Below are positions 16,993 through 53,924 of a stretch of 64,000 nt of DNA, piece by piece. A model generated the notes under the pieces. The model ran no database searches. It saw only the letters and a program-made list of their open reading frames with translations, and had not been told where the DNA came from. The DNA is taken from IMG/VR virus record IMGVR_UViG_3300025706_000001, positions 32,001 to 96,000 of that record; one strand, given 5' to 3'. A program made the position numbers and the translations under genes. The DNA is from a virus. Its lineage: Duplodnaviria; Caudoviricetes. The stretch's first letter is position 1. Every line of letters begins with the position of its first letter.

Positions 16993-18204
16993 TTAACAGA
17001 GCACCAATGAACAACTCTCGTCTTTGGGTCGGGTAGTGTCCCGGATCGTTTTTCGCGAGCCGGTCGATCCCGTTGCACGCTCGCCGTAGCCGGCCACGTT
17101 AGGCAACGCCGGGCGCACTACCGCCCGGTGCAGAATGTTCAAGGCAGCGTTGTGATCGCGGCCCAGAACAAGCCCACAACTTTGACAAGAATGAACTCGT
17201 TCGGAGAGCGACTTTGGAACCCGATCTCCGCAGCGCGAACAGTCCTGTGACGTATAACGAGCATCGACTGAGACCAACTGACCACCGGCGCATTCTGCCT
17301 TGTAAGCCAGCATAAATCGCAATCGACCCCAGGCCGCGTCGTTGATTGACTTCGACAAATGCGACCGAGTGAGGCCTTTGATGTTCAAGTCTTCGACGGC
17401 AATCAAGTTGAATCGACGTACCAAGTCCGCCGATACTTGATGCAGGTACGTGCTTCGCGTATTGCGGATTGTCTCGTGAATTCGCTGGACTTTCGCCTTG
17501 GCTTTCGTGCGGCCGTTACTGCCTTTCTGACATCGCGAGAAGGCACGGTGGGCAACTCGCAAGCACTTCTCTGCACGAGCTGTCGGTCGAACGTTCGGGA
17601 TGCTTTCACCAGTCGAAAGCGTCGCTAACGATGTCAGCCCCACATCAATGCCAACCTTTGTCACAATCGGCTTTTTTTCTGGCGATGGAACCCGCAAAAC
17701 CAGGGCAACTTCCCACTTGTTGTTCGCTTTTCGCTTGAACGAACACGACAAGATTTTTTCGTACTCGGGAAGCGGACGGTGAAGATTGACTCTCAATCCA
17801 CCGCTAATGCCTTTGACTCTCAACTGCTTGCTAGTCAAGCGAACTCCAATGAATTCATTGAAGGCAAACGTTCTAAAGCGGTGATGACTACGAAAACGAG
17901 GATATCCAGCCTTGTCATGGCGGTTGACTCGACTGAAGAATCCGGAAAATGCACGATCCAAGAGCTTTAATGTTCCTCGCTGAATACTGAGTGGAAGCGA
18001 CGCCATTTTGCTGTCATTGGATCGCAGGTAGGTTAGCCACCGGCTTTGATCGACATACGAAACGTACACGCCGTAAGTTTCGTAGGCAAAAGTTCTCCAA
18101 CTTAACGCTTCGTTGTACAGCCACCGTTGCTGGGACAGGATTGAGTCAAGCTCAGATCGCTGTTTTACGGTGGTTCGGAGTTGGTAACGGTACGTAATGA
18201 TCAT
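16993..18204 (-). CDS. tnpB: TnpB RNA-guided endonuclease, solo copy 1
   Basis: N-terminal HTH 'YRYQL', RuvC GIDVG / AVEDL / RDHNAA intact, Zn ribbon CSRCG...CQSCG. No tnpA nearby. Confidence 0.95.
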   Translation of the reverse strand: MIITYRYQLRTTVKQRSELDSILSQQRWLYNEALSWRTFAYETYGVYVSYVDQSRWLTYLRSNDSKMASLPLSIQRGTLKLLDRAFSGFFSRVNRHDKAGYPRFRSHHRFRTFAFNEFIGVRLTSKQLRVKGISGGLRVNLHRPLPEYEKILSCSFKRKANNKWEVALVLRVPSPEKKPIVTKVGIDVGLTSLATLSTGESIPNVRPTARAEKCLRVAHRAFSRCQKGSNGRTKAKAKVQRIHETIRNTRSTYLHQVSADLVRRFNLIAVEDLNIKGLTRSHLSKSINDAAWGRLRFMLAYKAECAGGQLVSVDARYTSQDCSRCGDRVPKSLSERVHSCQSCGLVLGRDHNAALNILHRAVVRPALPNVAGYGERATGSTGSRKTIRDTTRPKDESCSLVLC

Positions 18205-18303
18205 TGTTTGGGCGTCAAAAACGAAAGGTCGCCGCACGTTTTTACATGGGGCGACCTCTCGTCTATGAGTCGGTCTGTAAGTTGAATGGCAGCTTCGCGC
18301 CGC

Positions 18304-26067: not shown

Positions 26068-27267
26068 TTAGGCTATCTCCAGTGCTTCCTGCTTCACAGA
26101 CCGCCCAACGGCAATCTCCACAGGCGTTAACCCTTGCGGATCGCTTCGGTCGGCAACCACCGCCCTAGCGTAGTTTTTAAGATTCAATGATGCGTTTACG
26201 TCTCTGTCGTGTACCGCACCACAATCGCACGTCCACTGACGAACCGATAGCGGCAACTTATCGCGTTTCAAGCCGCAAACGTTGCACGTTTTCGATGACG
26301 GAAACCATTGATCGGTAGCAACAACTGTTCCGCCACGCCACGCCGATTTATACTCGACTTGACGCCGAAATTCGCTCCATCCCGAATCGCTTATCGCCCG
26401 CGACAGATGTCGGTTTTTGAGCATCCCGGCAACGTGCAAGTCTTCAATTCCGATCAAACTGAAATTGGCCGTATAGTAATCACTTGCCTTGTGGATGAAG
26501 TCGGAGCGTTGGCAGGCGATATGGAAATGCAGCTTCGCAAGTTTGCCTGCTGACTTGCGACGGTTGTTTGATCCTTTCTGTTTGCGGGAATGACGGCGGG
26601 ACAGGCGACGCAATTTCTTCAATGAACGGCACAGTGGACGCGGCGGGTCAAGCCGAGAACCATCTGAACCAACACAGAAGTGAGATAGGCCCAAGTCGAT
26701 TCCAACCGCAGGCCCTTGGTTTTCAGGCACTACGATGTCTTCCTCGACCTGGACCGATACGAACCAGCGACCAGCACGCTGGCTGATTGTGGCGGAGTTG
26801 ATCTTGACGGTGGATGTTGGGATGTAGCCACAACGCATCAGGCGGACAAAACCAATTTTGGGAAGGCGTATGCGGTCATCACAAACAGTGACGACTTCAC
26901 CAGCAACACGATACTTCGGCGTTGACTTGTGTTTTGACTTGAACTTCGGAAAGCCGACCTTCTTACCGCTCTTGATACCTCTAAAGAAGTTCTTGAATGC
27001 CGCCTCGCAGTCTCGGATCGCTGCCTGATGCGACCACTTACTGACCGAGTTCGCCCACTCAAACTCGCCTCCAGGCCGCTTCTTCGCGTTGAACTCTGCG
27101 TCAACCTCGCGGTATGGCAGTGTCTTGCCTGTCTTTTCGTAGTGGGCGATTTTGCGTCCCAATGCGAAGTTGAAGGCAAATCGAGCCGTTCCACAATGCC
27201 GAGCCAGCGACTCCTGCTGCTCAGTTGTAGGTTGTAGCTCCGTCTTATAGGCTCGCTGGATCAACAT
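26068..27267 (-). CDS. tnpB: TnpB RNA-guided endonuclease, solo copy 2
   Basis: 'RAYKTEL.PT.EQ...ARF.FN', RuvC GIDLG / IEDL / DRDVNA intact, 'FPSSKTC..CG'. The 3' end carries omegaRNA-type CGCCTGTGGAG...GAAGCAGGAA. Confidence 0.95.
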   Translation of the reverse strand: MLIQRAYKTELQPTTEQQESLARHCGTARFAFNFALGRKIAHYEKTGKTLPYREVDAEFNAKKRPGGEFEWANSVSKWSHQAAIRDCEAAFKNFFRGIKSGKKVGFPKFKSKHKSTPKYRVAGEVVTVCDDRIRLPKIGFVRLMRCGYIPTSTVKINSATISQRAGRWFVSVQVEEDIVVPENQGPAVGIDLGLSHFCVGSDGSRLDPPRPLCRSLKKLRRLSRRHSRKQKGSNNRRKSAGKLAKLHFHIACQRSDFIHKASDYYTANFSLIGIEDLHVAGMLKNRHLSRAISDSGWSEFRRQVEYKSAWRGGTVVATDQWFPSSKTCNVCGLKRDKLPLSVRQWTCDCGAVHDRDVNASLNLKNYARAVVADRSDPQGLTPVEIAVGRSVKQEALEIA

Positions 27268-27373
27268 TGGACGCGAGTACGGAGCCCCGCCGCAGGTGTT
27301 AACAGAACGGCGGCAAGCAGCCGCAGAACTTACTGCGGGCGGGACGTGATCGAAATGTTCTGTTAACACCGTC

Positions 27374-27402
27374 ATCGTAGCATGACCTAAATCATCTGTC
27401 AA
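27374..27402 (-). promoter_or_regulatory. Sigma70-type promoter of tnpB copy 2
   Basis: TTGACA-17 nt-TACGAT with an extended TG, read on the minus strand. Confidence 0.7.
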
Positions 27403-52585: not shown

Positions 52586-52616
52586 ATTATAACCGCTAAA
52601 GACATTGGCATGTCAA
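52586..52616 (-). promoter_or_regulatory. Promoter heading the late/structural operon, 19-bp spacer
   Basis: TTGACA-19 nt-TATAAT with the dyad GACAT-gcca-ATGTC. Confidence 0.6.
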
Positions 52617-52663
52617 GGCCGAAATACAGAAATGCCATCAGCGCATAAAGAAAGGGCAGTGTC

Positions 52664-53836
52664 CTAATTTGGACTTCCTGTTTCACGGACGAGGCAACCC
52701 TCGCCTCCACAGGCATTACCGTGCGTCCTACCGACGCCGGATGTTGCACCATTAAGTGCCCGCTGCAACACGTTGCGGGCCGCATTTAGGTCGCGGTCAA
52801 CAACCAGACCGCACGAAGGACAGCGATGAACACGAACCGACAACGACTTCGGTACAGTCTGGCCACACTGGCTACACTCCTGACTTGTGCCGCTGGGATT
52901 CACGCGAATGAACAGGCCACCAGCTTCTTCCGCTTTGTAGGCCAGACGTTGCGTGAATTGAGTCCAAGCGGCGTCCAAAATGCTCTTTCCGAGCCGTCCC
53001 TGTACCATGCCGTTGACGTTCAAATCCTCCACTGCAATGAATTGATGCTTGCTGACGATTTCCTTGCTGGCGTGATGGGTAAAGCTCGACCGCAGGTTGG
53101 CTACCCGTTCATAGACTCGTTGGAGCCGGTTCACGGCCTTGCGGAAGTTGCGGCTCCCCTTGACCTTGCGGCTCACTTCGCGATGGGCGTGAGCGAGTTT
53201 CCGTTTTGCTTTGCGGGCGAATCGCGGGTTGTCAATGGTGTCCCCGTTGCTCATGGTCGCGAACGTCTTCAACCCCACGTCGATGCCGACGCAGGAATGG
53301 ATCGGAACCGGTTGTGGGACCTCGCGATGATCGTCTACGACCAGTTGGGCGAACCACTTGCCAGCCCGCCGCACAACGTGAAGCTGCTTGATCGTGCCCT
53401 TGGTGTACTGCACGTTGCGGGCCTTGATCGGGCCGTTCACGCCGGATACGCGGATGCGTTTGCCACGCACGCACTTGCCGGGCGATTGAATCGAGAAGCT
53501 ATTCCAGCGTTGCCACGCCTTGAATCGGGGAAAGCCCGCCTTGCACTTGCCTTCGCGGACTCGTCTAAAAAAGTGCTGAAACGCAAGGTCCAGACGACGA
53601 AGGGCGTCGCGTTCGATTTTAGAGGGCACGTCGGCGAGTGTCGGCATAACCGACCGCAAGATCGTCAGGTCGGCGGTTTGCGTCATGTAGGACAGAGAGG
53701 TTTTGTCGGCTTCGTAGGCGACGATACGTTGTTCGAGAGAGGCGTTGAACAACTGGCGTCCGACATCGAGAAGATGCTCCAAGCGGGATTGCTGAGCGGG
53801 CGTCGGATACAGGCGGGCGGTCATCGTTCGCAACAT
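52664..53836 (-). CDS. tnpB: TnpB RNA-guided endonuclease, solo copy 3
   Basis: 'RLYPT..Q', GIDVG / AVEDL / DRDLNAA intact, 'TSQECS.CG'. 3' GCCTGTGGAG...GAAACAGGAA. Confidence 0.95.
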   Translation of the reverse strand: MLRTMTARLYPTPAQQSRLEHLLDVGRQLFNASLEQRIVAYEADKTSLSYMTQTADLTILRSVMPTLADVPSKIERDALRRLDLAFQHFFRRVREGKCKAGFPRFKAWQRWNSFSIQSPGKCVRGKRIRVSGVNGPIKARNVQYTKGTIKQLHVVRRAGKWFAQLVVDDHREVPQPVPIHSCVGIDVGLKTFATMSNGDTIDNPRFARKAKRKLAHAHREVSRKVKGSRNFRKAVNRLQRVYERVANLRSSFTHHASKEIVSKHQFIAVEDLNVNGMVQGRLGKSILDAAWTQFTQRLAYKAEEAGGLFIRVNPSGTSQECSQCGQTVPKSLSVRVHRCPSCGLVVDRDLNAARNVLQRALNGATSGVGRTHGNACGGEGCLVRETGSPN

Positions 53837-53842
53837 GCCATA

Positions 53843-53871
53843 ATGCTACCAAAACACCATTGACTTGTCAA
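53843..53871 (-). promoter_or_regulatory. Promoter for a leaderless tnpB transcript
   Basis: TTGACA-17-TAGCAT, with the ATG 7 nt after the -10 box and no SD. The -35 abuts the TIR. Confidence 0.7.
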
Positions 53872-53890
53872 TCCAAATTAGGACACTACC

Positions 53891-53924
53891 AAAGAAAGCC
53901 CGTCGTTTCTGGCGGGCTTTCTTT
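53891..53924. terminator. Bidirectional intrinsic terminator
   Basis: AAAGAAAGCCCG-tcgtttctgg-CGGGCTTTCTTT. Confidence 0.75.

Follow-up and report, generated by a model that had tools for sequence, protein, structure and literature searches.

A tnpB element inserted at a phage terminator

The DNA analyzed here, referred to as the window, is a 64,000-nucleotide stretch that covers positions 32001-96000 of IMG/VR record IMGVR_UViG_3300025706_000001, a complete phage genome of 128,867 bp bearing direct repeats at its termini. Within it lies a 1,236-bp element whose sole gene is tnpB, encoding a predicted RNA-guided nuclease, and which is bounded by two inverted ends and a target-site duplication (Table 1). 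The two 19-bp ends are identical at 18 of 19 positions, and the octamer AAAGAAAG directly abuts both of them as an exact repeat (8/8), in agreement with the original prediction that 19-bp inverted repeats and an exact 8-bp duplication enclose only tnpB and its promoter. The end pattern was found twice in the 64-kb window, where 0.01 occurrences were expected, and none of 100 shuffled sequences yielded two; beyond the element's two ends it was absent from the whole 128,867-bp phage. Besides tnpB, the ends enclose its promoter-like site, which begins one base inside the 5' inverted end, so that this end abuts the -35 box. Only 35 nucleotides (nt), containing the promoter, separate the 5' inverted end from the tnpB ATG, and TTGACA is likewise placed in the TnpB relatives L126 and L340. 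On the opposite side, the tnpB stop codon sits within the 3' inverted end.

Table 1. Features of the tnpB element and its insertion site, in window coordinates
Feature	Position	Strand	Basis or remark
Non-autonomous element, 1,236 bp	52655..53890	- (tnpB strand)	Delimited by the two inverted ends and the duplication of 8 bp
Inverted end, 3' side of tnpB, GGCAGTGTCCTAATTTGGA	52655..52673	+	Direct reading and pattern search
Inverted end, 5' side of tnpB, GGTAGTGTCCTAATTTGGA	53872..53890	-	Direct reading and pattern search
Target-site duplication AAAGAAAG, copy at the 3' (guide-RNA) end	52647..52654	.	8/8 identical to 53891-53898
Target-site duplication AAAGAAAG, copy at the 5' (promoter) end	53891..53898	.	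Also the base of the retained terminator stem
tnpB, 390 aa, predicted RNA-guided nuclease	52664..53836	-	Pfam, NCBIfam, alignment and structure matches
Promoter-like site TTGACA-17-TAGCAT with upstream TG	53843..53871	-	10/12 consensus positions
Predicted 3' domain of the scaffold of the guide RNA (omega RNA); overlaps the tnpB open reading frame at its end	52655..52790	-	Consensus fold
Predicted guide CTTTCTTTATGCGCTGATGG, duplication copy plus 12 nt of flank	52635..52654	-	Position inferred from the stop of similarity among relatives
Terminator hairpin of the upstream gene, AAAGAAAGCCCG, loop, CGGGCTTTCTTT	53891..53924	.	Direct reading and folding

When the element and one octamer were removed in silico, the flanks formed a 14- to 16-bp hairpin with a folding energy of -39.5 kcal/mol, as expected from the earlier claim that removal of the element restores a long palindrome. 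The placement of the insertion in a terminator arm was also confirmed, with the addition that the duplication keeps the terminator stem whole. The 12-bp stem is complete despite the insertion because the octamer duplication re-creates it on the right side, and the terminator of the upstream gene is therefore still complete. Beyond the other end of the element, a TTGACA-19-TATAAT sequence was observed at 52590-52625 (minus strand), approximately 25 nt downstream of the element 3' end and in front of the gene at 52485-52102. This places the element between a terminator and the likely promoter of the next operon.

The tnpB product exhibited the Pfam domains HTH_OrfB_IS605, OrfB_IS605, and Cas12f1-like_TNB (PF12323, PF01385, and PF07282), all above their cut-offs, and matched the NCBIfam guided_TnpB model with 304 bits (cut-off, 100). 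The protein has a CxxC..CxxC zinc finger, and its RuvC residues D186, E270, and D349 are intact and did not vary across an alignment of 40 sequences. The protein aligned nearly full-length with the ISDra2 TnpB structures 8bf8, 8exa, and 8h1j (E value of 5e-53). A residue-level structural alignment was made with the top-ranked solved relative, 9yyg, whose match spans the same chain residues as that of 8bf8; the GIDVGL, AVEDLN, and DRDLNAA motifs aligned with it. These matches place the TnpB in the typical ISDra2-like kind, and its catalytic site is standard.

Origin of the ends and source of the transposase

The exact 19-mer end was found in more than 120 contigs of bacterial metagenome-assembled genomes (MAGs) from many phyla, with labels that included Acidobacteriota, Verrucomicrobiota, Planctomycetota, Dehalococcoidia, Bacteroidota, Proteobacteria, and others. 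At least 39 inward-facing pairs of ends, 121 to 3,678 bp apart, were present in bacterial MAG stretches. An exact 8-bp direct repeat lay outside the ends in 26 of these 39 pairs and a repeat matching at 6 to 7 of 8 bases in 8 more, and the duplicated octamers had no consensus. The consensus of 155 bacterial ends was GGTAGTGTCCTAATTTGGATT, with conservation ending after base 21; the window 5' end, taken with the next two bases, agreed with it at 21/21 positions and the window 3' end at 19/21. The bacterial pairs comprise miniature inverted-repeat transposable elements (MITEs) of 121 to 391 bp, units of 2.4 to 2.7 kb, and larger units with extra genes. Passenger genes were seen in L058:3347-4762 and in other long pairs among L003-L122, for example one for a Schlafen AlbA_2/HATPase_c_4 protein, and a derivative of approximately 1,138 bp with the same ends and no transposase was present in three unrelated MAGs.

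One protein family was common to 20 of the 25 bacterial pairs of at least 1 kb. Its conserved core of approximately 275 aa matched Pfam DDE_Tnp_IS1 (PF03400) above the gathering score, and its best NCBIfam match was transpos_IS1 (NF033558; E value of 6e-20), at 72 bits and below the 100-bit cut-off. As in IS1, the transposase was encoded by two consecutive open reading frames (ORFs) or else by a fused one of approximately 600 aa. The core was 43 to 46% identical to plasmid genes annotated by NCBI as "IS1 family transposase." Around one such gene, on an Acidiphilium multivorum plasmid, a 2,634-bp element was found whose ends are GGTAGTGTCTCAGTTTGAAA (GGTAGTG) and GGTAATG... and whose 8-bp duplication, AAGCCGAG, is exact. 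The IS256/Mutator models (PF00872 and NCBIfam IS256) gave no match at an E value of ≤0.01 in 13 different ORFs of the transposase cluster. In ISfinder terms, IS1 elements have ends of the pattern GGnnnTG and make 8- to 9-bp target duplications, and the termini of the window element, GGTAGTG and GGCAGTG, fit this pattern. Since elements with the same ends encode IS1-type transposases and the Acidiphilium IS1 element is similar, the ends can be assigned to a distant IS1-family group and not to IS256, and the window element is, by the sequence of its ends, a non-autonomous derivative bearing IS1-family ends.

This assignment departs from the original prediction, which had called the ends IS256-like and had proposed a search for autonomous partners encoding an IS256 transposase between GGYAGTGTCC-type ends. 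The partners found carry IS1-type DDE transposases, and the transposases between such ends matched IS1 models and none matched IS256. It is true that a GG start and an 8-bp duplication also fit IS256 elements in general (ISfinder). That the ends belong to an IS256/Mutator-type DDE element is nevertheless very hard to credit, given the IS1-matching transposases in identically ended elements and the lack of any IS256/Mutator match in the 13 ORFs scanned.

Profile searches of the complete 128.9-kb phage found no gene for an IS1-type DDE transposase, a Y1 TnpA, or a serine recombinase; PF01797 (Y1) was absent from the phage while control genomes matched, and PF00239 (serine recombinase) was absent as well. 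The inverted ends and the exact duplication set the element apart from both IS200/IS605 and IS607, as do the absence of Y1 TnpA in the former case and that of a serine recombinase in the latter. Because the phage has no IS1, Y1, or serine transposase, the element appears to be non-autonomous and any movement would occur in trans, most likely by a borrowed transposase. In this respect the original prediction, a non-autonomous tnpB element with DDE-type ends that is moved in trans, was supported.

TnpB relatives and the predicted guide RNA

Homologs of the TnpB at 41 to 80% identity, located at unrelated sites and many of them in phage contigs, were found to have the same 3' anatomy as the window element, consisting of GCCTGTGGAG, a stem with compensatory changes, GTGAAGCAGGAAG, a short hairpin, and (G)GACACTACC. 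The terminal CACTRCC (CACTACC) was kept in relatives down to 41% identity, the similarity halted exactly after ACC, and the stop codon was usually a TAG within the 3' end. Four relatives exhibited both inverted ends and a duplication, namely, L340 (68% identity; ends GGTAGTGGTACAGTTTG, 17/17; duplication CAAATCAG, 8/8), L241 (on a 98-kb viral contig; duplication CCATGATG, 8/8), L155 (duplication 7/8), and L132, for which, as for L354, the sequence is GGTAATGGTCAAGTTTGAC and the duplication 7/9. Both ends were also present in L341, L129, L128, and L126, in a decayed form and with no duplication. At L241:8260-8290, a second, partial end copy was observed 13 nt after the first, and CCATGATG fits the outer copy; because of this second copy, the predicted guide of the L241 TnpB is itself end-like.

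In a quick maximum-likelihood tree of 84 TnpB relatives, all loci with inverted ends fell into one 41-row clade with 99% support in the Shimodaira-Hasegawa-like approximate likelihood ratio test (SH-aLRT), and the GGTAGTG-type ends were concentrated in a 16-row subclade. The sister subclade (L168, L170, L152, L167, L139, L357, and others) has a different inverted end, GGGAWTTATATAC... (GGGAWTTATATACNTGACTMCC), and 8-bp duplications, such as AAACACAA in L168, CTAAGAAT in L170, and AAAAATAT in L357. We take these ends to resemble those of the ISNwi1 group of IS1595 in ISfinder. A search for a transposase partner of the GGGAWTTATATAC... ends in 301 genomes from the phylum of G001 (Terracidiphilus, Acidobacteriota) returned matches at the level of the reversed control and no pairs. 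Relatives outside the clade end in a GC-rich hairpin plus GTTCAC, and two of them have a Y1 TnpA-like gene directly upstream (L164, with Pfam Y1_Tnp at an E value of 2e-41, and L181, recognized by its conserved C-terminal motif); among the sampled loci inside the inverted-repeat clade, no Y1 motif was seen. The tree and the ends together indicate that the association with inverted ends is a property of a TnpB clade and not a local accident. It had been proposed earlier that standard ends in homologous tnpB genes would speak against this reading; the close relatives are of the inverted-repeat type, and the distant ones, with hairpin-plus-TCAC ends and in two cases Y1 upstream, are not.

A single-protein search for close TnpB relatives in viral contigs found none, and a motif scan of viral contigs gave mostly chance matches, of which 1 in 118 was real. 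The phage itself has two further tnpB genes, at window positions 16993-18237 and 26068-27402 (both on the minus strand), whose products are 42% and 34% identical to this TnpB, respectively. In the copy at 16993-18237, the terminal sequence is again GGGACACTACC (at 17032); an inverted end is missing on the 5' side, and an imperfect 18-nt direct repeat, CCGACyCAwAGACGAGAG, flanks the gene. A TnpB 78% identical to that of the window was found in a 128-kb phage (L123 and L124) whose terminase and portal genes contain inteins (LAGLIDADG, Hint), and the close relatives L350, L127, and L341 also adjoin phage genes. On a 205-kb viral contig containing three TnpB relatives, one of them (L378) has a third class of ends, CATGCGTGAYTSCTTAAGCC, with the exact 8-bp duplication CCCGTCGA.

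The shared 3' anatomy could be folded as the 3' domain of a guide-RNA scaffold. In the consensus fold of eight relatives, 15 of 28 pairs were maintained through changes on both sides, and the scaffold GUGG paired with the CUAC of the terminal CACUACC; the A-to-G difference in the window terminus keeps this pairing as U-G. The single-sequence fold of the scaffold region had an energy of -55.1 kcal/mol (z of -2.48), and no guide-RNA family of Rfam was matched. RNA sequencing runs represented this DNA as contigs alone. The 3' inverted end is thus predicted, from these folds, to contain the last hairpin and the 3' terminus of the guide-RNA scaffold in addition to the tnpB stop. As the right end would supply the 3' terminus of the guide RNA, the guide is expected to be the DNA just outside this end, that is, the 8-bp duplication plus approximately 12 bases.

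It is also conceivable that the scaffold ends at CAGGAAG and that the 19-nt inverted end is the guide, with TnpB binding or cutting the other end, by its own promoter, for the purpose of self-regulation or of targeting sister elements. The match of the two ends at 18/19 positions, the abutment of the 5' end on the -35 box, and the end-like guide that results from the second end-like copy in L241 would all suit such a role. We consider it improbable, since among relatives the length of the segment following CAGGAAG ranges from 12 to 34 nt and this segment closes as a hairpin, and since it occupies the place of the last scaffold hairpin before TCAC in standard relatives. In L340, moreover, the bases that would form the part of the guide proximal to the transposon-adjacent motif (TAM) mismatch the other end, and self-targeting by a TnpB whose RuvC site is intact would cleave the element that encodes it.

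Proposed movement in trans and its alternatives

We propose that the window element is a non-autonomous member of the IS1 group, with tnpB, its promoter, and the scaffold as its only cargo, that it has been moved in trans, and that its right end has a dual role; we put the probability of this reading at roughly 0.78. An IS1-like DDE transposase encoded elsewhere, most likely by the host bacterium, would recognize both 19- to 21-bp inverted ends. A single insertion into the base of the intergenic terminator probably took place in an ancestor of the phage lineage. In an IS605-type ancestor, an IS1-type end would have taken the place of the right-end hairpin and its TCAC. This right end would then serve both as a transposase site and as the source of the tnpB stop and of the guide RNA's final hairpin and 3' terminus. 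The guide would match the unoccupied allele fully and the occupied allele only beside the element's own end. More speculatively, TnpB could cut the empty alleles of co-infecting phages, and recombination would then copy the element in.

Sequencing runs in which the phage was present came from 13 studies, which covered digesters, activated sludge, wastewater, and sediment, and the element was identical or different by one base in nine related phage contigs. There were 24 related contigs, for which eight places were examined in detail and the rest grouped as similar to these, and every related contig spanning the site carried the element. In six sister-strain contigs from one study (L210-L215), a clean 20-bp deletion of exactly 52635-52654 was observed, lying within approximately 4 kb of otherwise 99.9% identical sequence and starting at the base adjoining the element 3' end. 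The deleted 20 bp are the predicted guide, including one copy of the duplication. Since only the window allele has the duplication and restores the palindrome, it must predate the deletion allele. The deletion may have arisen by chance, as an adjacent deletion of the IS1 style, or through two cuts, one at the element end and one at the far edge of the guide. It also brings the element end nearer to the -35 box of the likely promoter of the next operon.

Several observations weigh against the proposed movement of the element by an IS1-like transposase. No tnpB was found in the 39 bacterial elements and no transposase in the tnpB loci, and as the two were never found together, it is solely the identity of the ends and the duplication that tie TnpB to IS1. 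Co-occurrence of TnpB with an IS1-like transposase was likewise not found in a sample of five genomes carrying IS1-like elements or in a sample of 301 genomes from the phylum of G002 (MAG label Planctomycetaceae; E value of 1e-90). The element is a single copy in the phage and gives no sign of recent movement. No empty site, with GCGCATAAAGAAAGCCCGTCG as its junction, was found in the 24 related contigs or in four sequencing runs (X3, X18, X19, and X20), where low word shares reflect thin cover and no joint across the element was seen. Searches of viral contigs with the exact junction and with the guide 20-mer also gave no match. The only more distant relatives of the neighboring gene, L348 and L349, lose synteny approximately 120 nt beyond the element and are uninformative on the site. 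In the six bases before the duplication of eight elements, only a G at -1 was common (6/8), which is too weak for a TAM call. Finally, about half of the clade members retain only the 3' end motif, whose conservation may reflect its function in the guide RNA and not mobility.

The last of these points, together with the fixation of the element at one site in all related contigs from the 13 studies, would also suit an element that is immobile and domesticated, in which tnpB is retained as a homing nuclease or RNA-guided weapon and the ends are relics that no longer have a role. Phage relatives with only the 3' end are known (L123, L350, L127, and the window copy at 16993-18237), and the phage has its two other tnpB copies. 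Both ends are nearly perfect, the 5' end agreeing with the consensus at all 21 positions, which argues for a recent or still competent element, and we regard domestication as unlikely; it would in any case concern only the present role and be compatible with an IS1-type origin. Another account has a solo tnpB of the IS200/605 type inserted into a short IS1-type MITE that the phage already contained, in which case the ends and the duplication would be those of the MITE and not of tnpB. MITEs of 121 to 391 bp with these ends do exist, and right ends of the standard hairpin-TCAC form occur in the more distant TnpB relatives. Against such nesting, there is almost no DNA between the ends and tnpB, the stop lying inside the 3' end and 35 nt remaining at the 5' side. 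The fusion of ORF end, scaffold, and CACTACC recurs in the 41 to 80% relatives at unrelated sites, several with their own ends and duplications, from which it follows that the fusion is probably old and travels with tnpB. These findings make a nested insertion quite unlikely.

A wider hypothesis extends the IS1-group reading to the whole TnpB clade, which may have moved from Y1 (IS200/605) carriers to DDE carriers of the IS1/IS1595 kind via the fusion of end and scaffold, with an RNA-guided homing drive into empty alleles in phages and with the 20-bp deletion as a nuclease or transposase footprint. We hold this as a tentative idea that is open to considerable doubt. If true, each new insertion would automatically gain a guide from its own target duplication and flank.

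Relation to known TnpB carriers and significance

Apart from the ends and the DDE transposase type, the autonomous relatives share with the IS1 family the 8-bp duplications, the split or fused transposase ORFs, and the occurrence of MITE and cargo derivatives; IS1 forms with passenger genes are known from the ISMhu11 group (ISfinder). They differ from it in that the autonomous members described here are 2.4 to 2.7 kb long with a transposase of approximately 600 aa, far larger than classical IS1, and in the sub-cut-off NCBIfam score (72 versus 100 bits), and the window element differs in being without any transposase. With IS200/IS605 elements (the IS1341-type solo tnpB and ISDra2), the window element has in common a homologous TnpB (E value of 5e-53 to 8bf8), a scaffold over the tnpB 3' end and a right-flank guide, both predicted here, and the scaffold core GCCUGUGGAG...GAAGCAGGAAG, which is common to relatives with Y1 TnpA. 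Whereas IS200/IS605 elements have neither inverted ends nor a duplication, both are present here, and the right-end hairpin and TCAC are replaced by an IS1-type end.

Six DDE-linked TnpB branches (DDE-1 to DDE-6), all with inverted terminal repeats, are described in the main text of Altae-Tran et al. (2023, PNAS, PMC10691335), where solo TnpBs with near-identical ends were taken as evidence of mobilization in trans. The branches as described there resemble the present element in the position of TnpB between inverted repeats, in the TnpB 3' end near the transposon end, and in solo copies moved in trans, and they differ in that here the transposase was never found with tnpB and the TnpB is ISDra2-like with an ordinary catalytic site. 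In a 2026 review (PMC13565253), the DDE partners of TnpB are given as IS630, ISL2, and IS1031. No paper naming IS1-type ends for TnpB was found in the literature searched, which included the main text of PMC10691335. TnpB in DDE transposons has been known since 2023, and what this element adds is an IS1-type partner and a phage-borne setting. Yoon et al. (2023, NAR, PMC10711439) showed that Fanzors, in eukaryotic transposons with terminal inverted repeats and target-site duplications, have guide RNAs that take in both the inverted end and the duplication. The likeness to the window element is that the scaffold is predicted to include the inverted end and the RNA to read out across the duplication; the difference is that Fanzors are eukaryotic or viral, belong to other transposon families, and have the duplication counted as scaffold. 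Because the octamer varies freely between insertions, the duplication here should be guide, unlike the Fanzor scaffold.

The practical value of the element is modest and would lie in a compact TnpB with a short scaffold end that is predicted to be well delimited. Cas12 descends from TnpB, whose natural role is bound up with the movement of the carrier transposon; almost all functional work on TnpB has been done on carriers of the IS200/605 and IS607 types, whose excision leaves no scar. The window element offers a clear case of TnpB on a target-duplicating DDE carrier for which the borrowed transposase family, IS1-like, has been identified, and it indicates that phages of wastewater bacteria acquire such tnpB cassettes. 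It provides a system in which to ask what defines a guide RNA at a transposon end that doubles as the transposase site, and whether RNA-guided homing still pays for DDE carriers.

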